A DNA stretch of 32,000 bases from Pseudoalteromonas tetraodonis. Lineage in GTDB: Bacteria > Pseudomonadota > Gammaproteobacteria > Enterobacterales > Alteromonadaceae. Position 1 is the first letter of the stretch; each line of letters starts with the position of its first letter. The stretch is taken from the NCBI RefSeq assembly GCF_002310835.1, contig NZ_CP011041.1:2370001-2402000 (forward strand), read 5' to 3'. This document shows, in pieces, positions 2,715-18,465 of this stretch. A program made the translations under genes and the position numbers. The notes beneath the pieces were generated by a model. That model ran no database searches. It saw nothing but the letters and a program-made list of their open reading frames with translations, and was not told where the DNA came from.

Positions 2715-3003
2715 GCTGATCCTTTAATGTTTAAATGTTAACGCAGCGCTTTAAAATTGGCGCTTAAACATTGATTATTCTTGCCGTTGTTAGCCACGTG
2801 GCCAACGCACATTTTTATTACAATCTATTTTTATTGCAAGCTCTATTCCAGTTACAAACTATAAACCAGTTAAGCCATAATATCCATCGCAACGCATTGA
2901 AAATAAATACCTTAAACATCATGATAAAAATGTTTTTATGTTGTTTATCAAGATGTTTACACTCTCTCAGTTAATAAGTGGCAAAAAAATGGCGGTTAAA
3001 GCA

Positions 3004-3037
3004 TAAAAAAACGGCAAACCACTGTGGTTTACCGTTT
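3004..3037 (-). terminator. Rho-independent terminator downstream of asd
   Basis: Stem aaacggcaaacca / tggtttaccgttt with one mismatch and loop ctg. It is followed on the minus strand by T7. Confidence 0.6.
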
Positions 3038-3065
3038 ATTGAAATTATCACTATTTTCAGGCTAA

Positions 3066-4082
3066 TTACATATAATTAGCAATCAGTTCTTCTGCTATTT
3101 GTACACTATTGGTTGCAGCCCCTTTACGGGTATTATCACTTACTACCCACATATTTAATCCATGTGGGTGTGAAATATCAGCACGTAAACGGCCGATATA
3201 AACAGTATCATTACCACTGGCATCCGACACAGCCGTTGGGTAGTCGCCAGCATCATCAATTAGCTCAACACCTGGCGCATCACTCAATAGTTGCTTTACA
3301 TGCTCAAAATCATAAGGCATACGCGTTTCAATATTAATTGACTCAGAATGACCAAAAAATACAGGGACGCGAACACAAGTCGGGTTTACCGCAATGGTTG
3401 TATCGCCTAAAATTTTATGCGTTTCGTTTACCATTTTCATTTCTTCGCGCGTATAGCCGTTATCTTCAAAGCTATCGATTTGCGGTATTACATTAAACGC
3501 AATTTGCTTAGGAAATATTTCGTTTTCCATTGGGCGTGCATTCATTAAATTTGCAGTTTGTTTAGCCAGTTCATCAACTGCCTCTTTACCCGCTCCCGAC
3601 ACCGCTTGGTAAGTTGAAACGTTAATACGATCAATGCCGTATGCATCATAAATAGGCTTAAGCGCAAGCATCATTTGAATGGTTGAACAATTAGGGTTGG
3701 CAATAATATTACGATTTCTAAAATCGGCTAAACTCGATGCATTTACTTCTGGCACAATGAGCGGCACTTCAAAGTCATTTCTAAAATGAGATGTGTTATC
3801 AATAACGATACAGCCAGCGTCTGCGGCGATAGGGGCATATTTTTCAGATACACTGCCACCAGCAGAAAATAAACCGATATGCGCTTGGCTAAAGTCAAAG
3901 CCTTCAACATCACGTACTTCTATGGTCTCACCACGAAACTTTATATCTTCGCCAGCACTGCGGCTGCTTGCTAATAAAAACAGCTGATCGACCGGAAATT
4001 TACGATCTTCCAAAGTTTCAATGATTTGACGACCTACAAGGCCTGTAGCGCCGAGTACGGCAACGTTATATTTTTGCGACAT
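3066..4082 (-). CDS. asd: Aspartate-semialdehyde dehydrogenase (short, ~338-aa type)
   Basis: N-terminal Rossmann motif VAVLGATGLVG. Catalytic Cys motif IANPNCSTIQM. YQAVSGAG motif. Catalytic His context FFGHSESI. Confidence 0.85.
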   Translation of the reverse strand: MSQKYNVAVLGATGLVGRQIIETLEDRKFPVDQLFLLASSRSAGEDIKFRGETIEVRDVEGFDFSQAHIGLFSAGGSVSEKYAPIAADAGCIVIDNTSHFRNDFEVPLIVPEVNASSLADFRNRNIIANPNCSTIQMMLALKPIYDAYGIDRINVSTYQAVSGAGKEAVDELAKQTANLMNARPMENEIFPKQIAFNVIPQIDSFEDNGYTREEMKMVNETHKILGDTTIAVNPTCVRVPVFFGHSESINIETRMPYDFEHVKQLLSDAPGVELIDDAGDYPTAVSDASGNDTVYIGRLRADISHPHGLNMWVVSDNTRKGAATNSVQIAEELIANYM

Positions 4083-4127
4083 ATTTCATCCTCTGTAAGC
4101 ACGATTAAAACAACCGTGCTAATTAAA

Positions 4128-5249
4128 TTAGTTTGCTGTAGTAAAACCAAGCTGCGCAAGTGCAGCAAGCTCGGTGCTATCACCTTCAACCACCACGGTG
4201 CTAAACTCACGTCGGGTTGGATAATTTTTTCGTAAACTGTCAAAGCCTTCATCGGCCAAGTGACGCAGTAAAATGCCATCATCACGGCGTACGTCATAAA
4301 CTAAGTGCACTAAACGGGCTATATCTGTTTCGCTAAAACTACTTCCTAGGGCGACTTTTTTAATTGCAGGAGGCGGTAAAAAATCATCAAGTGATTTTAT
4401 TGCGTTAACCCCTTTTAGCTCACACAAGCTTTGATACAACATTTGTGTACCCCGAGCTTTACCCTCAAGAGTATGTCCGGCAATGTGCACACTGGCATAG
4501 CGAACATGCTCAAGTAACTCGGTTAAAATGTTAGGTTCGTTTTCCCACACATCCAACACTAAATCGAGCTCAGCGCCTGCTTCCATCACCTCAAGTAATG
4601 CTTGATTATCAATCACATCACCTCGGCTGGCGTTAATTAAAGTAAGTCCAGGTTTAAGCGTAGTTAAGCGCTTTTTATCAAGCATGTGCAGTGTTTTATG
4701 CGTACCTGTTTTTACTAACGGCACATGAAACGTGACTATATCTGACTGCGCTAATAGCTCATCAAGCTCAACGTGCTCGGGTAATAGCCCTTGCTCATGC
4801 TTTATTGGGTCGCACAATAGTAAATTAACGTTAAGTGCTTTTAGCTTGTGCGCGAGGCAACTACCAATATTACCCACACCCACAATACCAATTGTTTTCC
4901 CGCTTAATGGGCTGGCGTTTTCTTGACTTAATGCAAATAAACTACTGATCACATATTCAGCAACCGCAATCGCATTGCAGCCAGGCGCACTGGTAAAATC
5001 AATATTTCTTGCGTTGAGCAAATCGGTATCAATATGATCCACACCAATAGTGGCTGTACCTACAAAGCTTAGCTTATTAGCCTGTGCTAATAATTCACTA
5101 TTGACCTGCGTGACTGAACGAGTGAGTAATACATCAACATCAATGAGTTTTTCTGGAGTTAATTGCCTGCCATCAAATCGTTCAACCTCACCCATATCTT
5201 TAAAGAATTGCTCAACTAAAGGCATATTTTGATCGGCAAGAATTTTCAT
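4128..5249 (-). CDS. pdxB: Erythronate-4-phosphate dehydrogenase
   Basis: MKILADQNMP... is colinear with my recollection of E. coli PdxB (MKILVDENMP..., GTATAGTDH-like, HLVYDVRRDD conserved). I placed the start at ATG 5249 rather than the upstream TTG 5267 used by the ORF track. Confidence 0.88.
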   Translation of the reverse strand: MKILADQNMPLVEQFFKDMGEVERFDGRQLTPEKLIDVDVLLTRSVTQVNSELLAQANKLSFVGTATIGVDHIDTDLLNARNIDFTSAPGCNAIAVAEYVISSLFALSQENASPLSGKTIGIVGVGNIGSCLAHKLKALNVNLLLCDPIKHEQGLLPEHVELDELLAQSDIVTFHVPLVKTGTHKTLHMLDKKRLTTLKPGLTLINASRGDVIDNQALLEVMEAGAELDLVLDVWENEPNILTELLEHVRYASVHIAGHTLEGKARGTQMLYQSLCELKGVNAIKSLDDFLPPPAIKKVALGSSFSETDIARLVHLVYDVRRDDGILLRHLADEGFDSLRKNYPTRREFSTVVVEGDSTELAALAQLGFTTAN

Positions 5250-5310
5250 TGTGAATCCGTTTGGCAAAATGAGACCCTATTGTAACGAACAACCGCCTAT
5301 TTGCACAAAC

Positions 5311-5338
5311 GAAAAAGCCGAGCATTTTGCTCGGCTTT
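5311..5338 (-). terminator. Rho-independent terminator downstream of fabB
   Basis: Stem aaagccgagc / gctcggcttt with loop atttt and a T-rich tail on the minus strand. Confidence 0.55.
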
Positions 5339-5357
5339 AAAATAGTTAAAGGTTTAC

Positions 5358-6569
5358 TTAGCCTTTGTATTTGCTCATTACTAATGTGGCATTGGTGCCG
5401 CCAAAACCAAAACTGTTAGACATAACCGTATTTAGTTCAACGTCTTTGGCTTCAGTTACAATGTTCAAGCCCGCTGCTTGCTCATCAAGCTCATCAATAT
5501 TGATAGATGGCGCAACAAAACCATGCTCAAGCATTAGCAATGAAAAGATGGCTTCGTGTACACCTGCCGCACCCAGTGCATGGCCTGTCATTGCTTTAGT
5601 TGCGCTGATCATTGGCGAGTTACCACCAAATACTTCTTGAATAGCGCCCAGCTCTTTCACATCGCCTACGGGTGTTGACGTACCATGGGTATTCAAGTAA
5701 TCAATGCTATCAACGTTTTGCATTGCTTGGCGCATACAACGTACTGCGCCCTCACCTGATGGTGCAACCATATCGTAACCATCTGAGGTTGCGCCGTAAC
5801 CGGTAATTTCAGCATAAATGTGCGCGCCACGTGCAAGTGCGTGTTCTAGCTCTTCAACAACCACAATACCGCCACCGGCTGAAATCACAAAACCATCACG
5901 GTTAGCATCGTATGTACGTGATGCTTTTTCAGGTGTGTCGTTATATTTAGTCGAAAGCGCGCCCATAGCGTCAAATTCCATCGCTAGCGTCCAGTGAAGT
6001 TCTTCACCCCCACCTGCAAAAATAACGTCTTGCTTGCCTAGTTGAATCTGCTCAACGGCATGGCCAATACAATGCGCAGAGGTTGCACACGCAGAGCTAA
6101 TTGAATAGTTAACGCCTTTAATTTTAAATGGCGTTGCTAAACATGCCGAGGTGGTACTTGCCATAGTACGTGGCACCATGTAAGGGCCAACGCGCTTAAC
6201 GCCTTTTTCACGAAGAATATCAGCCGCTTCTACTTGCCACTTTGATGAACCGCCGCCAGAACCCACTAATAAACCAGTGCGCTCGTTTGATACTTGTTCG
6301 TCGCTAAGGCCCGCATCTTCAATCGCTTGTGCCATTGAGATATAAGAATAAGCCGCTGCATCACCCATAAAGCGCATTGCTTTGCGGTCAACATGCTCTT
6401 TAACATCAATATCAATTTTACCTGATACATTGCTGCGCAATTTGTAATCAGCAAATTCTTGGTTAAAAGCAATACCGCTTTTACCCGCTCTTAGTGACTC
6501 TAATACTTCTTCTTTATTATTGCCGATGCTTGATACAACACCGATGCCTGTTATTACGGCTCTTCTCAT
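5358..6569 (-). CDS. fabB: 3-oxoacyl-ACP synthase I (KAS I)
   Basis: Near colinear with my recollection of E. coli FabB: [18 protein letters not shown], active-site [35 protein letters not shown]. It is divergent from mnmC, as in E. coli. Confidence 0.92.
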
Positions 6570-9049: not shown

Positions 9050-9685
9050 ATGAGTAAGACTTTAATTATTGGCGCAAGTGGTCAAATTGGTAAAATGGCT
9101 ACCAAACTACTTTTAGAAAATGAGCAAAATGTTGTTGCACTTGTAAGAGACAAAAGCAAACTGCGTGATTTAGATAGCCCATTTTTAAGTATTGTTGAAC
9201 AGGATTTAGAAGGTGACTTTTCAAGTGCCATTAATGGCTGCGACCAAGTTATCTTTGCAGCAGGTTCAGGTGGAAGTACAGGCACAGATAAAACCGTACT
9301 TATTGATTTGTGGGCAGCGACAAAAGCAGCAACTTATTCTAAAGAGCACGGTGTAAAACACTTTATTATGGTCAGCTCTATTGGTGCAGACGATCCTGAT
9401 GCGATAGATAGTGACTTAAAGCCTTATCTTGTAGCAAAACATATGGCTGATGAGCATTTAATTCACAGTGGACTCAATTACACAATTGTCCGCCCAGGAA
9501 CATTAACTGACGAAAGTGCCTCTTTGCAAGTAACAACAGAGCGCCCTAGCGATCAGTCAAAGGCTAAAATTAGCCGCGAAAATGTAGCCAACGCTTTGCT
9601 TCACGTTGCTACAAACTCATTTAATAGCAATCGTATTTTTGAGTTATTTGATGGCGACAAACCAATAAAAGCCGCTATTAAGTAA
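9050..9685 (+). CDS. NAD(P)H-binding SDR-like oxidoreductase (atypical SDR / NmrA-like)
   Basis: Rossmann motif LIIGASGQIG directly after the ATG at 9050, which is preceded by the RBS gaagga. Length is about 211 aa. Confidence 0.7.
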   Translation: MSKTLIIGASGQIGKMATKLLLENEQNVVALVRDKSKLRDLDSPFLSIVEQDLEGDFSSAINGCDQVIFAAGSGGSTGTDKTVLIDLWAATKAATYSKEHGVKHFIMVSSIGADDPDAIDSDLKPYLVAKHMADEHLIHSGLNYTIVRPGTLTDESASLQVTTERPSDQSKAKISRENVANALLHVATNSFNSNRIFELFDGDKPIKAAIK

Positions 9686-10436
9686 GCATTACACTCACCC
9701 CTTGCCATGCAAGCTGCATGGCAAGCAGAGTTAAAATCACTTTAAAAATAACCCTAAAACGTGCCACCGATAACCGCTTAAGTAAACGAATCCCTAACCA
9801 AGTGCCAATGGCTCCGCTTAAAATCATCGCCAGTGTTAACGGCAACCATTGCCAAAAGCTAAAACCCAGCCCCGCATAAACAACGGCTTTTAAGCTATGC
9901 TGCAAGGTCATAATACTTGAAAAAGTCGCGGTAAATTTAAGCTTATCGTAATGATTAATGTGTAAATAACTCGCCACCAGAGGCCCACTTGCTCCCACAA
10001 AAGTAGAAATAAATGCCGTAATTACACCCGCTATTAAACGCCCTAATCGTGAGTCTTTATTAAATTCAGGGATTGTTCCCCACAGTAAATAAATCACAAA
10101 TAAAGCCACAAACAGCTTCATGCTATCAAGGTTAATATCGCTTACTACTTGGCTTGATAGCCCAGCACCAATTAACCCACCCAGAGTAAAATACAACAGC
10201 ATCGGCTTATCAAGATGGGCAATACTTAACAACAACCGATTGGCATTAGAGCCTAACTGCACTAAACCATGAACAGGCACAACCACCGCCATCGGCATAA
10301 CCGACGCCATTACCACCAACAGCATTAAACCGCCACCCGCACCAAAGGCCGCCGATACAAACGAAGTAAACCCCGCCAGTAAAATAAGTAACAGCGAGAT
10401 CAAAGGGGAAATGTGTTCAGCTGTAAAAATATTCAT
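9678..10436 (-). CDS. TauE/SafE-family (sulfite exporter-like) membrane permease
   Basis: 252 aa, multi-pass and hydrophobic, with duplicated Gly-rich TM motifs (GAGGGLMLLVV, GASGPLV). Its 3' end overlaps the convergent SDR gene by 8 bp. Confidence 0.65.
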   Translation of the reverse strand: MNIFTAEHISPLISLLLILLAGFTSFVSAAFGAGGGLMLLVVMASVMPMAVVVPVHGLVQLGSNANRLLLSIAHLDKPMLLYFTLGGLIGAGLSSQVVSDINLDSMKLFVALFVIYLLWGTIPEFNKDSRLGRLIAGVITAFISTFVGASGPLVASYLHINHYDKLKFTATFSSIMTLQHSLKAVVYAGLGFSFWQWLPLTLAMILSGAIGTWLGIRLLKRLSVARFRVIFKVILTLLAMQLAWQGVSVMLT

Positions 10437-10566
10437 ATCAAAGCTCGCAGTTAATCATTGGCTCATAATACAAAAAATAAGCAAGTAAGCGACTAGTCTA
10501 TTAGTTGTAAGAGGTTCGGGGTTCGCAAGATAAACCAAAGCACAATAAATTCAATAATTTTAGCCA

Positions 10567-10608
10567 TAAAAAAACCCGCGACTTGATTGCTCAAGTTGCG
10601 GGTTTTTT
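10567..10608. terminator. Bidirectional hairpin terminator; presumed native ssrA terminator now separated from ssrA by the island
   Basis: A7 - cccgcgactt gattgctc aagttgcggg - T6. It lies just left of the displaced tmRNA 3'-end repeat. Confidence 0.55.
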
Positions 10609-10630
10609 AGGGTTTTTAAACAAACGAATT

Positions 10631-10668
10631 TAAAAACCGTTATTGGTGGAGCTGGGGGAGTCTGAACC
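10631..10668. repeat. Integrase-distal att repeat (displaced partial copy of the tmRNA 3' end)
   Basis: taaaaaccGttattggtggagctgggggAGtCtgaacc compared with 16220-16257 taaaaaccTttattggtggagctgggggGAtTtgaacc. They share a 19-bp identical core, ttattggtggagctggggg. Confidence 0.85.
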
Positions 10669-10719
10669 AAACATATAACCAATTGAAAAATATATAGACA
10701 AGCAAAATAAAAACCTGCT

Positions 10720-10740
10720 GTTGTTACTATTATTGTTACT
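10720..10740. promoter_or_regulatory. Candidate integrase arm-type sites (2 direct copies of (G)TTGTTACT) at the int-distal end
   Basis: gttgttact at 10720-10728 and attgttact at 10732-10740. The same motif recurs 4 times at 16048-16118. Confidence 0.5.
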
Positions 10741-10818
10741 TATTATCTTTCCGTGGGTTCAACTTCTCGATTTGCAGCTGAATCGACTGTATTAATAACT
10801 ACATTATTTGGATTACAT

Positions 10819-11370
10819 TTAACTTTTGTTCATACGCTTTTTAGTTTCATCTAAAAACGCGGCTGATACCCTATGATCAACTTTAAAAATCGTGTCACAC
10901 TTCTTTCCAGTGGCTTTCAATTCAATGTCTGCCTTGGCGAATTCTTCCAATCGCTCAACGGAAATATCAATTGCAAAATACTCATGCACAACTACATAGC
11001 TAACACCCATAGCTGAATTGGATGCAACATTACGATCTACCTCATGAAGTTTGTACTCTCTCCCAGTAGAATCATAGGCGCTATTTATAAAACACCAGCC
11101 ATTTTGTGAAAACATCTTTCCGTATAATTGAATGAAGTCAGGTGTACTTGAATCTTTTCCGTACTTTGCACGATAATTGTAGTTTGTTACAGGTTCTGAC
11201 ATGCCGCCCACATAAACCTCAGACCTTAACCACCCTTCAGACTTAAACTTATCGTAATTATAAGTAATACCTTTAGCCGCAGCCTCCTTACTACCTACAT
11301 TTACATTATAAGCACAAGCATTTAATAAAAATACCGATGCGCCAAATAGTGCTAAATTTAATATTTTCAT
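10819..11370 (-). CDS. Hypothetical lipoprotein (island cargo)
   Basis: MKILNLALFGASVFLLNAC contains a lipobox (LNAC). The RBS aaggga lies 5 nt upstream of ATG 11370. The track's longer ORF from 11412 lacks an RBS. I recognised no family. Confidence 0.7.
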   Translation of the reverse strand: MKILNLALFGASVFLLNACAYNVNVGSKEAAAKGITYNYDKFKSEGWLRSEVYVGGMSEPVTNYNYRAKYGKDSSTPDFIQLYGKMFSQNGWCFINSAYDSTGREYKLHEVDRNVASNSAMGVSYVVVHEYFAIDISVERLEEFAKADIELKATGKKCDTIFKVDHRVSAAFLDETKKRMNKS

Positions 11371-11404
11371 ACAATTCCCTTTATATAGTTTAACAGTCCT
11401 AGGG

Positions 11405-11908
11405 TTAATCAAACCCCAGCTCTTCTTTACTAGTTTTTGGTTTTTTTAAGCCGTTATAGCTTATTGAGAGCACAACATGCGCACTAAGCCCAGCATTAAC
11501 AAAGACTAAAACTAGAGTAAAATCACCACTCACCCATTGCATTGCTGTTTTATTATTCTCTAGTTGAGTGTACTTACCGAACAATGTGGTGAGCTTATTT
11601 AATAACAACGGATAGTCTTCAACGTCAAAATATACACCAACGCCATTAAGCCGCATTTCAGAATCAAACACAAATGACGTATTTCTATTTTGCCTTTTAA
11701 CCCCTAATACTTCTTTTGAATCTTTCAATTCAAGCCAAGCAATATCACCAACACTTTCCTTGGTAGTATTGGGTAATTTGTTTGCGACAGCTTCAATCGT
11801 ATCACCCCACTGTGTACCAAAAACACCATCACCAAACAGCTCTGCAATAGTTGCCGCTTTTACAGGGAGTAAAAAAAATAAAAATAAAACACTTAAAAAC
11901 AGCCTCAT
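11405..11908 (-). CDS. Hypothetical exported protein (island cargo)
   Basis: N-terminus MRLFLSVLFLFFLLPVKA|AT is a typical Sec signal peptide. 167 aa. I recognised no family. Confidence 0.65.
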   Translation of the reverse strand: MRLFLSVLFLFFLLPVKAATIAELFGDGVFGTQWGDTIEAVANKLPNTTKESVGDIAWLELKDSKEVLGVKRQNRNTSFVFDSEMRLNGVGVYFDVEDYPLLLNKLTTLFGKYTQLENNKTAMQWVSGDFTLVLVFVNAGLSAHVVLSISYNGLKKPKTSKEELGFD

Positions 11909-12030
11909 GGCTTTCCTTAAATTTAGTAGTAGAAACTGAATAAAGATATAAACCTATACCTTATACTAACACCAAAACCTAAATGGCTTGCGAGTATTTA
12001 TGCAAACAAATGTAAGATACCGACTTAAAA

Positions 12031-12197
12031 CTTTGTAGTAAAAAGCTTACAAAGCTATAAGCCTAATATGATGCATGTTTAAGAGCTTAATGAATACACG
12101 TGCATATCTCTCCGCAAAACAGCTGTAAGGTGTTTATTTGATACTGTCTTTTTATAAGCCTAAAATGATAGGTTTTGTAAGGTTTTGTTAGGCTTAT
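12031..12197. repeat. Cluster of short direct and inverted repeats (iteron-like) in the 512-bp non-coding gap of the island
   Basis: TATAAGCCTAAwATGAT at 12056 and 12153. An inverted ttaggcttat at 12188-12197. Tandem AGGTTTTGT x2 at 12170-12188. Hairpin ctttgta/tacaaag at 12031-12054. Confidence 0.6.
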
Positions 12198-12419
12198 TAA
12201 ACTAAGTTTTACTAAGTATTAACGGCTCATACAGTTGAGGTTTTATCAGGTATAAAGGCTAGGATAATTTAGATTTCATCAGTACAAAAACAAATACATT
12301 CGCTAAGCTCTTAAAATAAGTAGAGCCATTTAAAAATCAATTTTTGACAATGTTTGATAACCTGACAGCAAACAAAGTTAGATATAAAGTGTTTAATTGC
12401 TTTGTATTGTATACATTCC

Positions 12420-12995
12420 TTAAAGCTTAGGTTTAACCCTACTTGAGCCGTGGTTTTTAGTTTGTGCTGGTTTATAGCCCTTCCCTCTGGCTTTAGCAAG
12501 GTAAGACATACGCCATATAGCGCCTTGCTTTTTATCATGCTCATATCGTTTAAATCTATAAAAACAATTTTTTGGAATCCATGGACGCACACCCAATGTA
12601 TTTCCCATTTCTAAAATAAATTCATTTATCTTACTTGGGTAGCATACTTTGTTAGCATCAAGAATAACTACCACATGATAATGCTGCTTTTTCGCTCTTT
12701 CTTGCTCCCGCGTCCAATGGTAGCCAAAGATAGGCATTTTATACCTTTGCTTTATAAAACCGCTTAAACTTTCCATAACAGCAATAATAAAACGGTTATC
12801 ATTTGTTTGATATGGAATACCGATATCAAATCGTAAAACTAAAACTTGGCTATAATGTGTTAAAACTGCCTCAAGCTGATCTAACATACTCTTCATTTGC
12901 GCTGTGTAAATGCCGCTCTTTGACGTATGAACTTGCCAAATGTTCTGTTTATGGCAAATTACAGGTGAGTGACTCACATACTGATAATTAGACAC
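12420..12995 (-). CDS. YagK/YfjJ-family (Inovirus Gp2-like) protein, possible replication initiator
   Basis: Motifs typical of the family as I recall it: VLVLRFDI, YHWTRE, KKQHYHVVVILDANK (an H-Y-H triplet), MSYLAKARGKGY, NHGSSR. It occupies the same position relative to alpA as yfjJ in E. coli CP4-57. Confidence 0.7.
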   Translation of the reverse strand: MSNYQYVSHSPVICHKQNIWQVHTSKSGIYTAQMKSMLDQLEAVLTHYSQVLVLRFDIGIPYQTNDNRFIIAVMESLSGFIKQRYKMPIFGYHWTREQERAKKQHYHVVVILDANKVCYPSKINEFILEMGNTLGVRPWIPKNCFYRFKRYEHDKKQGAIWRMSYLAKARGKGYKPAQTKNHGSSRVKPKL

Positions 12996-13331
12996 AAATA
13001 CTTCCTATTAGATAATATAAATATCCGAATGATAAAAGGGGTGTTTTCACTAGTGTCATTATTCCACGGCTGGCTAACTCGACTTTATACAGTAAGTAGT
13101 AACTAACAACCTTCATTTTTAATGAAAACAAACCTATAAACCACTGCCGTTAAAGACCGCAATAAAAAAGGCTTAAGGGAAAAGACTGGATACACACGCC
13201 CTTCAATGTTAGTGGAAACTCACCTGAAAGCATTTTTATTATGAGCTTTACTTATTATATAATGCTTAAAGCTAGTGGCAGTTTAGCTACTCGCCACCAG
13301 CCCTCGAAATAACCAATCTAAAGCCGTCTAA

Positions 13332-13832
13332 CTAACCATTAGTCGGCTTTTCCTTATCAAAGACAGGCTCATTAGCCGCACCAGTAACCTTTAAATGCTC
13401 GGTCACAATAATGGTTTTAACCTGCTCAATACCAAGTTGCTCAAGGATTTTAACAAGGCTCTTTTTTGCCCTTTGCTCTCTTTCCTTTTTGACTTTACGC
13501 TTAACTTTTTCACGCTGAGCCGCTCGTTTATTGAAAAACTCAAATCGTTGTAGCTCTGTCATAGAGTGAGAAACCTTTAGCCCAACCTCACGCTTACTTT
13601 GATAATCAATAAAGCATTTCATTTTAAGGTGGCTATGCTTTGCATCTTCCTTATCTAATTCAACATCGGCATACCCTCTACCAATTGGGCTTGTAGATTG
13701 ACCGTTAAGCCATGCGAGCAAGATTGAACGGTGAATAATGTCCATTCGAACTAGCTCCTCAAAAGCTTCTGGTGCTAACTTTTCCAAATATTCCAATGTG
13801 ATTGGTGTTGGCAGTTCATTTAAATTAATCAT
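13332..13832 (-). CDS. Hypothetical protein (island), start overlapping the alpA stop
   Basis: 166-aa ORF. ATGATTAA forms an 8-nt overlap with the end of the alpA-like gene. It has a Lys/Arg/Glu-rich central segment (KVKRKVKKEREQRAKK). I recognised no family. Confidence 0.55.
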   Translation of the reverse strand: MINLNELPTPITLEYLEKLAPEAFEELVRMDIIHRSILLAWLNGQSTSPIGRGYADVELDKEDAKHSHLKMKCFIDYQSKREVGLKVSHSMTELQRFEFFNKRAAQREKVKRKVKKEREQRAKKSLVKILEQLGIEQVKTIIVTEHLKVTGAANEPVFDKEKPTNG

Positions 13833-14103
13833 TAGCTGCCTCCAAGTGAGTGTATTGCTTAAGTAGATTTTTGCGCTTTGCGACTAGTTCACGAACAAAT
13901 TCTTTTATCTGCTCATCGTTGTAGCCTGCAATGGTTACTGCTAAGGTTGCGTTTATTTCATACTTATAAAATGCAACTCCGCGTTTACCTATTTTTATAG
14001 GTGGAGGTATTAGCCCATCATTAATTTTTTGCTGAAATAGGGTTTTACCACATGCCCATAATGGACGTGCCTGCTCTTTTCTAGTTAATTCAAGTAGTGA
14101 CAT
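13825..14103 (-). CDS. alpA: AlpA-family helix-turn-helix regulator / excisionase-like protein
   Basis: 92 aa. The segment GKTLFQQKINDGLIPPPIKIGKRGVAFYKYEINA fits the AlpA pattern (S.STIY..I..G.FP.PIKLG.R.V.W...EI). A strong RBS aggagg lies upstream. Confidence 0.7.
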   Translation of the reverse strand: MSLLELTRKEQARPLWACGKTLFQQKINDGLIPPPIKIGKRGVAFYKYEINATLAVTIAGYNDEQIKEFVRELVAKRKNLLKQYTHLEAAND

Positions 14104-14206
14104 TTAAGACCTCCTAAGGTCGTTAATAAGTTTGCAATACAAATATTAACCTGAAGAATTATTTAAGCTATTTCAGTTTCCTAGTCATGTATCATCGTGA
14201 TAAATA

Positions 14207-14815
14207 TCAAGGTGATTTATCACTTTTTTGTAGGATTTCTTCTCTTATTTTTCTAATATGATTCTTGATAGCTTGATCACCTATCGTTGGGTACGTGTCC
14301 TTAGTAGCTAAAAAATCCTTATATTTTTTAACATAGCGCTCAAGCTTATAATCTTTTATTGCCTCACCAAAACTTCTAAAATCTTGACTTATCAGATGCT
14401 CAATATCACTTCTTATCTTTTCGGTTGAAATATTAGGCTTACTTCGTTTGGCTCTATTTTTCTTTGATTCCAACTTTCTAGTTTCATTTAAAGCCCAACT
14501 AGCTCCCTTTGTATCACCACTACACACCCCCATTTGATAAGCTCTCTTAATAAGTTCTTCTATATATAATCTTGAATACATTCTAACGTGAGTCGTCACA
14601 TCAATATCATTGCCGTGTGACACATCAAAGTTCTGTATTAAACCATATTCAAGTGCATGTTCAGCTTTATCGACGTCAACTTGATTTAGCAAATCTGCAT
14701 GAGAAGTTACTAAGTTCTCTATATAAATTTCGATTGCTTCAAGCGATTTCTCATAATTTTTAATAGCTGATTTAGATGGTTTCCCAAATCTATGGGGGAT
14801 GTATTCGATTTTCAT
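14207..14815 (-). CDS. Hypothetical protein translationally coupled to the integrase gene
   Basis: 202-aa ORF. Its ATG overlaps the int TGA as ATGA at 14812-14815. It is AT-rich and I recognised no family. Confidence 0.55.
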   Translation of the reverse strand: MKIEYIPHRFGKPSKSAIKNYEKSLEAIEIYIENLVTSHADLLNQVDVDKAEHALEYGLIQNFDVSHGNDIDVTTHVRMYSRLYIEELIKRAYQMGVCSGDTKGASWALNETRKLESKKNRAKRSKPNISTEKIRSDIEHLISQDFRSFGEAIKDYKLERYVKKYKDFLATKDTYPTIGDQAIKNHIRKIREEILQKSDKSP

Positions 14816-16047
14816 TTCAATACCTTTAGATAGCTAAGCCCAGCTAACGAACTACTTCCACTAGCCGCATTTTCTATATACTCAGACCACCAGCACATCA
14901 TGGTTTTTCTTCGTTCAAAGTAGTCAGTGCGGTTATATGCTCGCCTTACTTCGTTTGTATCAACATGCGCTAAAGCTGCCTCTATTACGTCAGGGTCAAA
15001 TCCTTGTGCATTAAGCGTTGTACTGGCAAGCGAGCGCAAGCCATGTGCCACCAGCTCGCCTTTAAACCCCATACGCTTTATTGCTGCATTGGCTGTTTGC
15101 ACGTTCGCGTGGCTGCGTGGGTCTCTATCAGCGGGAAATACATATTCACGGTGCGCACTTATTGGTTTCATTAATTCAAGTAAAGCGAGTGCTTGCGGTG
15201 TAAGGGGTATGCGTTGCTCTTTGCCCTTTTTCATTTGCTCGGCTGGTATAACCCACACGCCAGTATTTAAGTCTATATCTTGCCATTTAGTTGTTGCAGC
15301 CTCATTAGGGCGTGTCATGGTGTGTAACTGCCATTCGATTAAACAACGCGTTGTAAGCTTAATACTGGCACGATTTAAGGCACTCATTAGCTCAGGTAGC
15401 CTATCCACTTCAATAGACGGCATAGCGCTTTTTTTAGGCGCTTGGAATGCTTGCCTTATATTCGCTAGTGGATTGGCTTCTATAAGCCCACAGTTAACCG
15501 CATGCACCATTACTTCGTTAATACGCTGGCATAGTCTTTTTACAGTCTCTAAGCTGCCCTTTGCCTCTATGGGTCGCACTAGCTCTATTACTTGAAAGGC
15601 TTTTAATTTACTTATTGGTTCATCACCAAACGCAGGAAAGGCATGATTAGTTAACAGATTTAAAGCGGCTTGTGCTGTTTGTGGTTTTATTTCTGTTTTC
15701 TTTTTCTCAAACCACATTAAAGAAACTGCTTTAAATGTTTGTAGGTGTGTTTCTTGTGCTTGCTTTTCATCTAGCTGGCGCTGGTGGATAGGGTCTATAT
15801 TTTCAAGCACTAGGGCTTTATATTTTTTATGACGTTCTCTAGCCGTTTTAAGACTTATATCAGGGTAAGAGCCAAGCCCCATATTTTTACGTTTTTTAGT
15901 AATTGGCGCTGTGTAGTTATAAAGCCAAAATTTACCACCACTGGGCTTTATTCGTAATGTTAAGCCGCCACCGTCAGTAAGGTTATATTCCTTAGCTTTT
16001 GGTTTAGCCGAGTCGACTTGCTTTGCTTTGAGGTTGTGAATAGCCAT
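14812..16047 (-). CDS. int: P4-type tyrosine integrase (DUF4102 N-terminal arm-binding domain)
   Basis: N-terminus LTDGGGLTLRIKPSGGKFWLYNY...MGLGSYPDISLKTARE. C-terminal catalytic signature HGLRSLASTTLN ... VRRAYNRTDY. It is adjacent to the ssrA 3' end. I placed the start at ATG 16047; the track uses TTG 16056. Confidence 0.9.
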   Translation of the reverse strand: MAIHNLKAKQVDSAKPKAKEYNLTDGGGLTLRIKPSGGKFWLYNYTAPITKKRKNMGLGSYPDISLKTARERHKKYKALVLENIDPIHQRQLDEKQAQETHLQTFKAVSLMWFEKKKTEIKPQTAQAALNLLTNHAFPAFGDEPISKLKAFQVIELVRPIEAKGSLETVKRLCQRINEVMVHAVNCGLIEANPLANIRQAFQAPKKSAMPSIEVDRLPELMSALNRASIKLTTRCLIEWQLHTMTRPNEAATTKWQDIDLNTGVWVIPAEQMKKGKEQRIPLTPQALALLELMKPISAHREYVFPADRDPRSHANVQTANAAIKRMGFKGELVAHGLRSLASTTLNAQGFDPDVIEAALAHVDTNEVRRAYNRTDYFERRKTMMCWWSEYIENAASGSSSLAGLSYLKVLK

Positions 16048-16118
16048 TTGTAACAACGATCCCTATGTAAAATTCCAGTTGTTACGTTTAGTGTTACAAC
16101 AAATCGCGGTTGTTACAA
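16048..16118. promoter_or_regulatory. Candidate integrase arm-type sites (4 copies of GTTGTTACAA-like) at the int-proximal end
   Basis: ttgtaacaac at 16048-16057 (inverted). gttgttac at 16078-16085. gtgttacaa at 16091-16099. gttgttacaa at 16109-16118. Confidence 0.5.
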
Positions 16119-16153
16119 GTTTTAAACGGTCACTAATGGTTAAACTATAGGCA

Positions 16154-16194
16154 TAAAAAAACCCGCAAGGCTCGAATTAACTAGCGTTGCGGGT
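16154..16194 (-). terminator. Island-borne terminator now serving ssrA
   Basis: On the minus strand the stem acccgcaa/ttgcgggt is followed by T7. It lies 40-80 nt downstream of the tmRNA CCA end, with architecture parallel to the native hairpin at 10567-10608. Confidence 0.55.
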
Positions 16195-16219
16195 CTTTTA
16201 CGGTTCTTAGCAACGTATC

Positions 16220-16257
16220 TAAAAACCTTTATTGGTGGAGCTGGGGGGATTTGAACC
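16220..16257. repeat. Integrase-proximal att repeat (within the functional tmRNA 3' end)
   Basis: Partner of 10631-10668, sharing the 19-bp identical core. Confidence 0.85.
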
Positions 16258-16589
16258 CCCGTCCGAAAAGCCTCGACCGTCGGTACTACATGTTTAGTAT
16301 TGTCATTTAATTAACCTTTAAATCCCGGACAAACACGGTAGATAAAGGCGAGGCCGCTTAGTTTTAACGCTTCAACCCCGGCCAGGGTTTCCGTCGCGAT
16401 CAGGTGTTAGGGTGACACTCCAAAATCCAGTCCACAAGAATACATGGAAGGAGCGCTAGCCAGCCTAAGCTGCTAGAGAGTAGTTATCGTCGTTTGCGAT
16501 TACTTTAAATTGCGGCTTTTTTACGAGGCAAACCGCACCTCGACATGCACCTTGGGCTTCTTGAATTCCGTCGAATCCTAATCAGCCCC
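16233..16589 (-). ncRNA. ssrA: tmRNA (SsrA), 357 nt, tag peptide ANDDNYSLAA
   Basis: The 5' end GGGGCUG pairs with the 3' CAGCUCC-A-CCA, including the G3:U wobble. T-arm GGGGGUUCAAAUCCCCC. The tag reading frame GCAAACGACGATAACTACTCTCTAGCAGCTTAG lies at 16465-16497. Confidence 0.95.
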
Positions 16590-16621
16590 TGAATAAGGTT
16601 ACTCATTCAGAGCGTGCGAGC

Positions 16622-16651
16622 AGTATAACTGAGTAACCCATCAATACTCAA
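16622..16651 (-). promoter_or_regulatory. Candidate sigma70 promoter for ssrA
   Basis: On the minus strand: TTGAGT, an 18-nt spacer, then TATACT. This would give a ~25-nt leader before the mature 5' end. Confidence 0.4.
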
Positions 16652-16839
16652 CACCTTAGGCGTTTTATTTTATTGGTTGGTTAATCCTGCATCAAACACA
16701 CTTTTAAATGTAAAATATTGGATAATTAAGAAACAATTACTTAACAAGTATGATGCTTTATGCTCAAATGTAGGGCTAGACCTTGGTCTAATACAATATA
16801 AAAAAATAATAACAGGCATATTACCTAGAGGATTTATAA

Positions 16840-18465
16840 ATGTCGGTTTTTTCTTTTGATGAGCAAACGGGGCATATCTCTTTGCTCTCCCACCCTAATG
16901 TCTCAGGTTTAGCCTCAACAGCAACACAGCTTATTGAATTAATTAGTCAGTCAGAATATTGCGAGTGTGACATTATTGTTAGCAATATTGGTAAGTTGTT
17001 TGCTCAAAATAACGACGAAGAGATCCCCTCTTTGGTGGTTGCTCAAGCCATTGATGCAAAGCTAACCATTAACATTGATGAAAAAAATATGCTTGTTGAA
17101 GCTACCCTTATTACTGCTAAGGGCGGTAAATTACTTAACATGGAACAAGCAATTGACGTGTTAGCTCAGGCAGGGATTGTAAAGGGTATTAGCTCTCATG
17201 CATTAGAACAGTTATTGGCACAACAATTTGAACACCCCTCAGGAAGCACGCATTGCGCTGAAGTCGCTTTTGGTCGCGCGCCTAAAGTGGGTAACGATGC
17301 CAAATTTGTGCGTCTTTGCTGCACAGCGCAAGACCGCGTACTTAGCCCGCAAGCTAAGGGCGGTGGTAAAGTCGATATGAGAAACCTAGGTGATATTATT
17401 ACTGTAAAACCTGGGTGTGAACTAATGCGGCGTATTCCAGCAACATCGGGAGTTGATGGCTTTACTGTGTTTGGAGATGTGCTAACTGCAATCCCTGGCA
17501 AAGAGCATAAATTACAACCTTTTGACGGTACTAAAATTGCGCCCGATAACCCCAACTTACTAATTGCCGACTGTACTGGTGTACCGGTTGCCCTTCCCCG
17601 TGGTATGCGTGTTGATGATGTTTTATGTTTTCATAATATTGACCCAAGTACCGGCCATGTTGAATTTGATGGCAGTATTATAGTCAGTGGTGATATAAAA
17701 GATGGCATGCGCGTGACTGCTACCGGCGATATTACTGTTTTAGGTTTTGTTGAATCGGCGCAGTTAAAAAGTAATAACGCCATCACAATAGTAAAGGGGG
17801 CAATTGGCAGAAAACGAGAAGCCGATGAGCCATTCACCTGTTCTATTTTTGCTAAACGAACCGTTGCTCTTGGTTACTCTCAATACTGTGACATAAAAAC
17901 GGAGCAAAACTTATTAATAGAACGCCAATCATTACATTGTGACTTGAGTGCTGGAAATTTAATTAGGGTTGGCAGCGCAAAAGATCCTAAAGGGAAAATT
18001 ATTGGTGGTCATATTCTAGACGCAATGCGCATTGAAACAGGTGAATTGGGCGCACCAGCAGGAACTAAAACCCGTGTTTGCATCGCACAGCGATGGTATG
18101 TGCTAAAACAAAAACAAGCGCAAATCACTGACTTTGAAAAAGTTTTAATCAGTAAGTCAATTGAACTACAGCAAGCGCGCCAGCGAATTAATAAACAAGT
18201 TGCAAGCGCACAGCGTCAGCAGTTTTTGAATAAAATAACAACGAATGAAGAACACATAGCAAACCGAAGCGCCAGTATCAGTCAGCAAAAGCAGTTGCTA
18301 AGAAAGAAAATGACGCAGCTTTTAGCGCTCAGTCGTTTGAAAGTTAATGAGCTTATGCACCCCGGGGTGGAGCTTAAAATTGCACGAGAATCAATTAGCT
18401 TTTCGCGTAATTATCCACCACATTTAATCACTCACAGTGAAGGTAAAATAACGCAATCGTTTTAA
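16840..18465 (+). CDS. FapA-family (DUF342) protein
   Basis: 541 aa. It has a beta-helix-like repeated G-x-I/V segments region (VSGDIKDGMRVTATGDITVLGFVESAQLKSNNAITI) and a C-terminal coiled-coil, as in DUF342/FapA proteins. The RBS agagga precedes the ATG. Confidence 0.7.
   Translation: MSVFSFDEQTGHISLLSHPNVSGLASTATQLIELISQSEYCECDIIVSNIGKLFAQNNDEEIPSLVVAQAIDAKLTINIDEKNMLVEATLITAKGGKLLNMEQAIDVLAQAGIVKGISSHALEQLLAQQFEHPSGSTHCAEVAFGRAPKVGNDAKFVRLCCTAQDRVLSPQAKGGGKVDMRNLGDIITVKPGCELMRRIPATSGVDGFTVFGDVLTAIPGKEHKLQPFDGTKIAPDNPNLLIADCTGVPVALPRGMRVDDVLCFHNIDPSTGHVEFDGSIIVSGDIKDGMRVTATGDITVLGFVESAQLKSNNAITIVKGAIGRKREADEPFTCSIFAKRTVALGYSQYCDIKTEQNLLIERQSLHCDLSAGNLIRVGSAKDPKGKIIGGHILDAMRIETGELGAPAGTKTRVCIAQRWYVLKQKQAQITDFEKVLISKSIELQQARQRINKQVASAQRQQFLNKITTNEEHIANRSASISQQKQLLRKKMTQLLALSRLKVNELMHPGVELKIARESISFSRNYPPHLITHSEGKITQSF

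Follow-up and report, generated by a model that had tools for sequence, protein, structure and literature searches.

The chromosome of Pseudoalteromonas tetraodonis carries a small genomic island at its transfer-messenger RNA (tmRNA) gene ssrA. We have analyzed this island within a 32,000-nucleotide stretch of contig NZ_CP011041.1 (assembly GCF_002310835.1, positions 2,370,001 to 2,402,000), which we call the window and to which all positions refer. An initial annotation had described a duplicated ssrA 3' end that brackets seven co-oriented open reading frames (ORFs), and had suggested a minimal element of the phage-satellite kind. The locus is built from the following parts, listed from ssrA onwards.

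16233-16589, minus strand: ssrA, the tmRNA gene, with tag peptide ANDDNYSLAA (ARAGORN and Rfam)
16229-16247, minus strand: attL core, the 19-bp crossover region within the 3' strand of the ssrA acceptor/T-arm
16143-16232, minus strand: island-borne replacement of the ssrA downstream region, with a terminator hairpin at about 16154-16199; some 80-87% similar to the native 10556-10630
16050-16116, minus strand: candidate arm-type integrase sites of the int-proximal (P') arm, three copies of GTAACAAC
14812-16056, minus strand: int, 414 amino acids (aa), a tyrosine integrase of the P4/CP4-57 IntA type with an arm-binding domain
14207-14815, minus strand: orf202, a hypervariable gene with a 4-nt ATGA overlap with the int stop; positional analogue of iolg of the PICMI islands
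13825-14103, minus strand: alpA-like gene, 92 aa, a divergent winged helix-turn-helix regulator or excision factor
13332-13832, minus strand: orf166, a small protein whose C-terminus is basic and helical, between alpA and rep
12420-12995, minus strand: rep, 191 aa, a putative HUH (His-hydrophobic-His) rolling-circle initiator of the YagK/YfjJ ('inovirus Gp2') family
11405-11908, minus strand: orf167, cargo, with an N-terminal signal peptide (MRLFLSVLFLFFLLPVKA) read from the ORF translation
10819-11412, minus strand: orf197, cargo, a probable lipoprotein with the likely start MKIL..LLNAC, 183 aa
10720-10739, minus strand: candidate arm-type integrase sites of the distal (P) arm, GTAACAAC and GTAACAAT
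10556-10668, minus strand: attR, the native ssrA 3' fragment in its displaced position (core 10640-10658), and behind it the host ssrA terminator hairpin 10569-10608 (repeats and terminator scan)

The tmRNA gene is intact and of full length (219 bits in Rfam). Its 3' end recurs on the far side of the island, where a direct repeat of 46 nt (10623-10668 versus 16212-16257, 87% identity) contains the exact 19-bp core TTATTGGTGGAGCTGGGGG at 10640-10658 and 16229-16247. Further collinear repeat pairs are found at the island ends (10556-10579/16143-16166 and 10595-10618/16186-16209). The duplication described in the initial annotation is real and was placed correctly, but its extent was understated: the similarity of the two ends spans about 115 bp (10556-10668 versus 16143-16257) and covers the last ~25 nt of ssrA together with the terminator hairpin. 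Since the repeat includes the hairpin downstream of ssrA, a copy of the ssrA 3' end, terminator included, comes with the island itself. The cores lie 5,589 bp apart and enclose the seven ORFs, all of which we confirm on the minus strand. The G+C content is 0.34-0.38 inside the island versus 0.40-0.45 in the flanks.

A four-way alignment, in which attL and attR are set against an empty site and the attP of a circular relative, reveals how the ends arose. The empty attB consists of the left half of attL and the right half of attR, and the attP of the relative consists of a sequence of the attR-left type and a sequence near-identical to the right half of attL. The portion of attR to the right of the core is identical to attB of the empty site, and the circular relative L006 has an attP arm near-identical to the 16143-16232 region. 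From this chimeric pattern it follows that strand exchange took place inside CCCCCAGCTCCACCAATAA. The att structure is that of a classical site-specific exchange between attB and attP, and the repeat is no chance match. The attP in question comprises a mimic of the ssrA 3' end, a terminator of its own and repeats of the arm type, and an integrase of the P4/IntA type has recombined it into ssrA at the 3' end. The attP junction of the window island can be written as ...TCAGACTCCCCCAGCTCCACCAATAAAGGTTTTTAGATAC... The motif GTAACAAC has six matches in the window versus 1.4 expected, four of them at the island ends (10720, 16050, 16078 and 16109). In L006, L103 and L170, which are circular relatives, attP lies between comparable arm repeats, and the layout in L006 is the same as that of the P' arm. 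The GTAACAAC and GTAACAAT motifs might thus serve as arm-binding sites of the integrase. The neighbors of ssrA are a FapA-domain gene (16590-16840) and a TauE/SafE exporter gene (9678-10436); smpB is not beside ssrA in the window, in contrast to the situation in E. coli. Two Rfam matches, RsaJ (23 bits) and tmRNA_permuted (27 bits), at 10534-10606 and 16465-16670, do not reach the gathering score and lie over the native terminator and over ssrA; we have taken them as chance.

The island is discrete, complete and recently mobile. We surveyed polymorphism at the site among contigs that encode a flanking TauE protein identical to that of the window. FapA, ssrA and TauE genes are adjacent without an island at four distinct places (L080 with nine similar places, L082, L083 and L085). 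Here, the flanks are 99.4-99.9% identical to the window, the TauE protein is identical and the empty site is precise. The island-bearing type appears in the same survey as L081 and three similar places. In addition, 16.8 kb of island-bearing DNA in BJXY01000005.1 (assembly GCA_007991235.1) is 100% identical to the window, and Pseudoalteromonas sp. SM9913 and BSi20439 have Rep and orf202 proteins identical to those of the window, whose own proteins bear accessions of P. tetraodonis GFC. That strains of different origin share identical island proteins, and that near-identical strains have empty sites, argues for efficient transfer. Presence-absence polymorphism at ssrA therefore exists, and the objection that the segment has no empty site fails. 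A mosaic variant of the island occupies the same ssrA site in L084 (Logan ERR14940457). Compared with window positions 14055-14840 and 10806-11703, this variant displays cassette-like swaps within an island that is otherwise 95-98% identical. The swapped blocks are the int-coupled gene with its spacer and the last cargo gene, which is again replaced by a signal-peptide protein.

The Gp2/YfjJ-like protein had been named earlier as the only replication candidate, and its HUH/YxxK motifs, its fold and its occurrence on small plasmids bear this out. Rep matches Pfam PF11726 (YagK_YfjJ_C) at 1e-11 and has a weak match to REP_ORF2-G2P. Among 28 aligned homologues, which are 31-77% identical to the protein of the window, R55/D57, Q104-H105-Y106-H107 and S164-Y165-x-A167-K168-x-R170-G171-K172 are invariant, and these motifs (RFD, QHYH and SYLAKxRGK) correspond to the series motif I / HUH / YxxK that is seen in rolling-circle Reps. 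The AlphaFold2 model of Rep reaches a predicted local distance difference test score (pLDDT) of 91. Its best matches in the PDB are to the origin-binding/nuclease domain of adeno-associated virus Rep68, with a probability of 0.99, an E value of ~7e-4 and a template modelling (TM) score of only ~0.3. In BFVD the top match carries the annotation 'Inovirus Gp2' (E 3.7e-6, TMq 0.56), and parvovirus NS1 fragments come next; a PDB sequence search with the Rep profile gave nothing meaningful. Judged from sequence and model, the island Rep appears to have the features of the HUH Rep superfamily, namely the His-hydrophobic-His motif, a probable catalytic tyrosine in YxxK and a predicted central beta-sheet fold.

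The Rep family is large, with 1,995 clusters (50% identity) at E <= 1e-3 and 299 at E <= 1e-30. Relatives are encoded on 28 PLSDB plasmids, including replicons of 2.6-5.9 kb from Psychrobacter, Klebsiella and Pseudomonas. In Psychrobacter pA41H1 (2,626 bp) the Rep relative is the only annotated coding sequence, which argues that proteins of this family are replication initiators. A Psychrobacter contig of 4,335 bp with a 55-bp terminal overlap, and hence circular, also encodes a relative. Because the protein has kept the HUH/YxxK motifs, has a fold resembling HUH Reps and is the sole annotated gene of a 2.6-kb plasmid, we regard the Gp2-like protein as the replicon. That the island is an active integrative element replicated by this HUH Rep is very probable. 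Two non-coding regions close to rep are candidates for its target.

13129-13301, minus strand: non-coding features upstream of rep, a hairpin GCTGGTGGC...GCCACTAGC (13271-13301) and a block GCGGTCTTTAACGG..TTATAGGTTT (13129-13160)
12153-12250, minus strand: candidate origin, with iteron-like YAAAACYT repeats at 12177, 12187, 12211 and 12245 (pairs 10 bp apart) within an inverted repeat TATAAGCCTAA / TTAGGCTTATA

Half of the eight YAAAACYT matches of the window lie within 273 bp. A cluster of four or five copies, in pairs 10-11 bp apart, is found 70-260 bp downstream of rep in L084, L016, L017 and L098 as well, and the DNA around the cluster is otherwise hardly alignable between these islands and the window. 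The hairpin upstream of rep, in aligned form GCTGGTGG...CCACCAGC, is common to six relatives, and its stem is kept despite sequence changes; in the same six-relative alignment ATAGGTTT is invariant in the block 13129-13160. Either the YAAAACYT cluster or the hairpin could be the replication origin; for the conserved features upstream of rep, a role as promoter, operator or nick site is conceivable.

HUH nucleases act as rolling-circle Reps and as conjugative relaxases. It might be that the island is an integrative mobilizable element, in which, once excision has taken place, the HUH protein works as a relaxase at an origin of transfer and a single strand is exported via the type IV secretion system of a co-resident conjugative plasmid or ICE. 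Besides the class of the nuclease, this reading is favored by the finding that modules of int and alpA also head conjugation-dependent elements of this kind, such as the PIMEs, and by the co-orientation of the genes, which is seen in many rolling-circle and transfer modules. However, neither the island nor 23 relatives contain a gene for a coupling protein, a mobilization accessory protein or a type IV secretion system, and 25 of the 28 plasmids with a Rep-family protein are typed as non-mobilizable. As the sole annotated gene of pA41H1 the protein must be at least a replication initiator, and related large tmRNA islands moved without cell contact (PMC12595487). We therefore consider mobilization by conjugation unlikely.

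The integrase is composed of Arm-DNA-bind_3, Phage_int_M and Phage_integrase domains (Pfam; PF00589 at 2e-29). With E. coli IntA it shares 49% identity from end to end, and its NCBIfam match is NF007246 (1e-144). The gene coupled to it, orf202, has homologues in just 2 clusters among 5.8 billion proteins. Pfam, NCBIfam and PADLOC give no assignment for orf202, and there is no match in phage records. This second position, slot 2, is occupied throughout the family by a gene that is tied to int: the overlap is 4 nt in six islands and 8 nt in two, and in most others the start lies within 0-5 nt. The slot-2 proteins of 21 islands are mostly unrelated, and phmmer connects only a few of them to each other. 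In the mosaic L084 an unrelated gene of 244 aa sits exactly in slot 2, while int and the alpA-rep part are 95-98% identical to the window. The sole named domain that we have seen in slot 2 is DUF6387, in L094/L095 (L094 1517-2347).

The remaining genes give fewer clues. Pfam, NCBIfam and PADLOC assign nothing to orf166, orf167 or orf197, and Rep, orf202, orf166 and orf167 have no match among the phage records. For orf166 we found seventeen homologue clusters, and those with a source name are from Pseudoalteromonas; its AlphaFold2 model (pLDDT 60) is unusable for a fold search. In other islands the slot of orf166 is occupied by gene families F5, F6 or F8. The protein orf167 belongs to gene family F9, which is present in four related islands, and has no family match in PHROGs either. 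The likely late start of orf197 agrees with a gene call of 183 aa in L081. This protein matches PHROG phrog_8752 (5.5e-10), a family without known function, has homologues with 44% identity in the tRNA-Phe islands L021 and L028, and weakly matches hypothetical proteins of Moraxella prophages in the phage records. Structural phage genes, conjugation genes, a primase and a helicase had been reported as lacking from the island, and none was found by Pfam, PHROGs, NCBIfam or PADLOC.

The window island is one member of a large and apparently undescribed family of 4-7 kb islands of marine bacteria. A scan with the Rep profile over one genome per species yielded 62 loci. Around 40 of these have a tRNA or tmRNA gene, an int within ~200-300 bp, then an AlpA homologue and then Rep at near-constant spacing. 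The integrases at those loci are 47-57% identical to that of the window, and some 28-36%. Attachment genes of the family are those for tmRNA and for tRNA-Arg, -Met, -Phe, -Leu, -Thr and -Ser. Among the hosts are Pseudoalteromonas, Colwellia, Psychromonas, Thalassotalea, Shewanella and Oleispira, and also Marinagarivorans, Cellvibrio, Kangiella, Methylophaga, Thiothrix and Thioglobus. In most cases direct repeats of the tRNA or tmRNA 3' end bound units of 4,050-7,374 bp (in kb: L038 4.05, L037 4.09, L053 4.40, L017 4.43, L023/L026/L049 4.65, L046 4.91, L021 5.37, L016 5.60, L063 5.97 and L020 7.37). Protein clustering of 23 islands yields the constant series int (F1), variable gene, AlpA (F3), small ORF (F5/F6/F8) and Rep (F2), followed by 0-3 accessory genes behind rep (F4, F7, F9, F10 and singletons); the smallest islands hold just the five core genes. 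The layout recurs in 80 of at least 505 further metagenome stretches (JGI/ENA contigs). Slot-2, F4, F5, F6 and F7 proteins of the relatives have no Pfam domain. We found no published description of the family in open-access papers and bioRxiv, in line with the initial view that no described family fits the island; a description elsewhere is possible.

Several variants of the family deserve mention. F4 (~200 aa, two CxxC pairs, e.g. ..CPYCQ..CRQC..) and F7 (~80 aa) often stand behind rep in islands of the Colwellia/Psychromonas type and are not in the window; islands with F4/F7 are L021, L023, L026, L028-L030, L033, L034, L053, L066, L015, L086, L090 and L170. In L090-L092 (JGI metagenomes) a cargo protein of 660 aa with a Big_2 (bacterial Ig-like) domain is encoded on the opposite strand, at ~1188-5029. 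A SUP05/Thioglobus-like Rep variant (L009-L014; P0052, 44 collection blocks) is very abundant in metagenomes and comes with an int of 399 aa, a slot-2 protein of 337 aa, an AlpA of 61 aa and a Rep of 195 aa. The contigs of this variant repeatedly stop near 5 kb, which suggests population heterogeneity or repeats at the island borders.

Relatives of the island also occur in forms with a closed attP junction. Three metagenome contigs are circular permutations of family islands. L006 has 4,639 bp with a 9-bp end overlap and the order orf-Rep-attP-int, and is collinear with the integrated L005. L103 has 5,884 bp with a 55-bp terminal overlap, and its int follows 305 bp after Rep; L170 has 5,556 bp with a 123-bp terminal overlap. 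Between rep and int, all three have a spacer with a mimic of the tmRNA 3' end and a terminator, and with short repeats (GTAACAAC, TAGTAACAC or AGTAGTAC) on either side. Since a circular assembly needs reads across the attP junction, the source must be excised circles or tandem arrays.

These data bear on two further explanations. One is that the island is the decayed margin of a larger, CP4-57-type prophage or island and can no longer move. In its favor are an integrase with 49% identity to IntA of CP4-57 and a gene order (int, X, alpA, Y, yfjJ-like gene) reminiscent of the CP4-57 left end. Against this stand two intact att sites with an identical 19-bp core, precise empty sites and seven intact ORFs. 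Furthermore, tmRNA and several tRNA genes harbor the five-gene core in complete units of 4.05-7.4 kb that are bounded by att sites, and circular forms of relatives exist. Decay from a larger element is extremely improbable, and the corresponding caveat of the initial annotation can be dropped. The second explanation is a self-sufficient integrative rolling-circle plasmid that has no dedicated helper and is spread occasionally by vesicles, natural transformation or generalized transduction. It draws support from the autonomous plasmids of 2.6-5.9 kb that are driven by the Rep family, from the circular assemblies of the relatives, from the lack of hijacking genes in the island (Pfam, PHROGs) and from VEIME-like concatemers that are seen also in vesicle fractions (PMC9618062). 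However, a conserved hypervariable gene coupled to int, together with an AlpA switch, is the layout of a helper-induced satellite, and identical proteins across differently sourced strains beside near-identical strains with empty sites imply efficient transfer. A helper-free life style is hence improbable.

We propose the following chain of events for the active integrative element with an HUH Rep. The int gene and the overlapping hypervariable orf202 would be co-expressed. The AlpA-like protein, turned on by an external trigger, would then complete an excision complex of Int and the slot-2 protein. Rep would nick the excised circle at a rep-adjacent origin, for which 12153-12250 and 13271-13301 are candidates, and rolling-circle replication would amplify the circle. 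A helper would carry the product to new cells; most likely, a tailed phage, whether infecting or induced, would package multimers into its capsids. The exported proteins orf167 and orf197 would be accessory cargo and possibly act at the cell surface. For the chain as a whole, from excision via rolling-circle amplification by the HUH Rep and transfer by a helper phage to accessory cargo, we see even chances. Hijacking of tailed phages is favored as the mode of transfer because the gene order matches that of PICMI and because tmRNA islands with int, alpA and a Gp2-like gene move in jumbo-phage particles; taken for itself, its chances appear to fall just short of even. Somewhat more tentative is the wider proposal that the family forms a second widespread lineage of minimalist phage satellites in marine Gammaproteobacteria, with five genes, rolling-circle replication and insertion into tmRNA and tRNA genes. 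In such a lineage, the slot-2 gene would couple excision to a particular helper or be under an arms race with the helper.

Several observations weigh against the proposed chain of events. Classical replication of HUH plasmids gives single-stranded monomers and not double-stranded concatemers. Pfam and PHROGs identify no TerS, Ppi, Sid, capsid or other hijacking gene among the seven proteins, and PADLOC finds no defense function in any of them. Similarity between the island DNA and 50,697 phage records is confined to int. A scan of IMG/VR with the Rep profile for signs of encapsidation finds a single locus, L015, that is flagged as viral through an abutting P2-like prophage. Neither virion-derived evidence nor a helper emerged from these searches. 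The AlpA-like protein of the window scores 17 bits against Pfam PF05930, under the cut-off of 21 bits; the slot-3 orthologues of nine islands (25-58 bits) all pass, one of them being 78% identical to the window copy. Tandem int-rep-int arrays occur in L037 and L157 and are an alternative source of circular assemblies. Finally, the attP-specific 39-mer of the window island is absent from IMG/VR and JGI metagenome contigs in an exact search. Activity of the window copy is deduced from the empty sites and the intact parts, since its own attP junction was not found in the scanned collections. The arrays themselves, in L037 (a Cellvibrio metagenome-assembled genome, 6942-12546) and L157 (259-6672), have the form int-...-rep-att-int, and hence islands of the family can stack at one site.

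A lead to a possible helper comes from loci with P2-type genes. In L015 (IMG/VR UViG 3300049783_001738; 44-6153 and 14229-14289) the end of a P2-like prophage, with gpA, a Cox-like protein, a CI/S24 repressor and a P2-type integrase, lies in tandem with a family island. Only a tmRNA 3' fragment separates the two, and therefore the P2-like phage and the island share the ssrA site. At its far end this island has five tandem 12-bp repeats (ATCAAGGGGTTC), with one more copy beside its int. In the ENA scaffolds L086 (3828-5531) and L087 (3416-5095) a Phage_GPA protein of 559-567 aa, which is a P2 gpA-like HUH nickase, follows directly behind the accessory end of the island. It is 39% identical to gpA of L015, and the contigs end soon after. 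L015, L086 and L087 were the reason to consider a P2-like helper; P2-type genes adjoin only a small number of loci, and at some of these the genes are part of a neighboring element at another tRNA.

Filamentous phages are a different kind of helper. RS1 and TLC in Vibrio cholerae are filamentous-phage satellites that are packaged by a helper inovirus. A helper inovirus might likewise package and extrude single-stranded circles of the island described here. The Rep family is named for inovirus Gp2 and its best viral fold match is 'Inovirus Gp2', units of 4-7 kb are of inovirus size, and all genes are oriented on a single strand. However, Rep has no tblastn match in the 50,697 phage records, which include inoviruses, and among the islands examined none has inovirus morphogenesis genes as neighbors. 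Two relatives have Phage_GPA-type genes beside them, but these are of the P2 gpA-like kind, and the one in L015 sits with Cox-like, CI-like and P2-type integrase genes. In addition, a packaging-signal hairpin was not identified. An inovirus satellite is thus distinctly unlikely; in a bolder variant of the second-lineage proposal, the rolling-circle product would be packaged as single-stranded DNA by filamentous phages.

Proteins of the YagK/YfjJ/Gp2 kind adjoin int and alpA, unexplained, in many islands of enterobacteria and Pseudomonas, including CP4-57 and CP4-6 of E. coli K-12. Our analysis gives these proteins a concrete role as replication initiators, and a context in which this role is testable. 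If the islands are helper-dependent, the hosts of minimal satellites widen from Vibrionaceae (PICMI) to much of the marine Gammaproteobacteria, the replicase module is interchangeable (primase or HUH Rep), and about five genes in 4.1-4.7 kb would be the irreducible set for an integrative hijacker. The hypervariable gene that overlaps int has now appeared in two unrelated island families, and it is tractable in cultivable Pseudoalteromonas (GFC, SM9913) with natural relatives that have an empty site. Current satellite finders would overlook these islands, because they seek primases and hijacking genes.

Among the known systems, CP4-57 had been put forward in the initial annotation as a parallel. 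This holds for the ssrA target, for IntA (49% identity over the full length), for the order of an AlpA-family and then a YfjJ-family gene, and for a distant homology of Rep to YfjJ. It does not hold for the genes in between. The counterpart of yfjH is unrelated and yfjH lies on the opposite strand; YfjI is a DUF3987 protein of 469 aa that is unrelated to orf166 and has no counterpart in the island. The AlpA proteins give no BLAST alignment, and YfjJ aligns with 24% identity in its N-terminal part only (E 2e-5). CP4-57 is, moreover, annotated over 22 kb. The small Gp2-type plasmids such as pA41H1 share with the island a homologous initiator (30-35% identity over 85-99% of the protein), the same motifs and the small size of the replicon. 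They differ in being autonomous, without integrase, alpA and att sites.

Recurrent features of the tmRNA islands I23/I44/I55 of Pseudomonas and of VPI-1 are a tyrosine integrase, AlpA and an inovirus Gp2-like protein, without genes for autonomous transfer, and I55 travels as a satellite of a jumbo phage that transduces it (PMC12595487). Elements of the I23/I44/I55 type have an ~18-kb shared region with YqaJ, a helix-turn-helix-containing protein and the Gp2-like protein; they carry defense systems, and RadC homologues are common in related elements (PMC12595487). The window island has the int just downstream of the tmRNA gene and the direct repeat of the tmRNA 3' end that are features of the islands of Zhao et al. 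2025, a loosely defined class. A third feature of this class, in which the integrase gene is intY, is that the far end bears alpA or a conserved 3'-end sequence; the 23-bp sequence of Pseudomonas does not apply to the window. In those islands alpA and the Gp2-like gene are located at the end far from int, whereas here they stand directly behind it, with alpA 2 kb from int; the window island is also only 5.6 kb in size and lacks the extra genes.

P4-like satellites are characterized by an integrase, Psu, Delta, Sid, AlpA, epsilon and alpha (PMC10085698). A P4-type integrase with an arm-binding domain and an AlpA-like regulator are common to them and the window island, and the relative L015 is in tandem with a P2-like prophage at ssrA. 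However, Psu, Delta, Sid, epsilon and alpha are all missing from the island (Pfam, PHROGs), which has half the size of P4. Three other classes were considered and rejected: PICI and cfPICI, since the seven proteins include no TerS, Ppi/Rpp, Cpm, capsid, portal or connector (Pfam, PHROGs); the PIMEs, which have ~22 kb, trbJ/trbL and RepA and depend on IncP plasmids; and the Charybdis elements, which live in archaea and lack hallmark genes for an integrase or a Rep.

In architecture PICMI comes nearest, down to an int-overlapping gene that had escaped the initial annotation. These islands of the Vibrionaceae have the order int-iolg-alpA-up1-prim-up2, and PICMI115 has 6.1 kb (PMC10803314). Their iolg overlaps int by 1, 4 or 13 nt, most commonly as ATGA, and comprises 13 gene families, none of known function; excision needs int, iolg and alpA, and the DNA is packaged as concatemers (PMC10803314). 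In the SatelliteFinder model of PICMI a tyrosine integrase is mandatory, next to AlpA (PF05930 or PF12728) and a primase with DUF3987 (PF13148) and DUF5906 (PF19263), and integration adjacent to fis is called a 'hallmark characteristic'. By the described gene order, the window island has the same size class and the same succession of int, an int-overlapping hypervariable gene (ATGA), an alpA-like gene, a small ORF, a replicase and cargo. The co-orientation of the genes, the marine gammaproteobacterial hosts and the lack of capsid-remodelling and packaging genes are shared as well, and the integrase has PF00589 plus arm-binding and central domains. Membership in PICMI nevertheless fails on two defining features, primase and fis: the replicase here is an HUH initiator of PF11726, no DUF3987 or DUF5906 primase domain is present in the seven proteins, and the family resides in the 3' ends of ssrA and tRNA genes and not beside fis. 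Its hosts span Alteromonadales, Oceanospirillales, Thiotrichales and others, in contrast to the restriction of PICMI to Vibrionaceae. What is new here would be a minimalist-satellite architecture with a different replicon and different attachment sites, for which spread as a phage satellite has the best support among the candidate routes.

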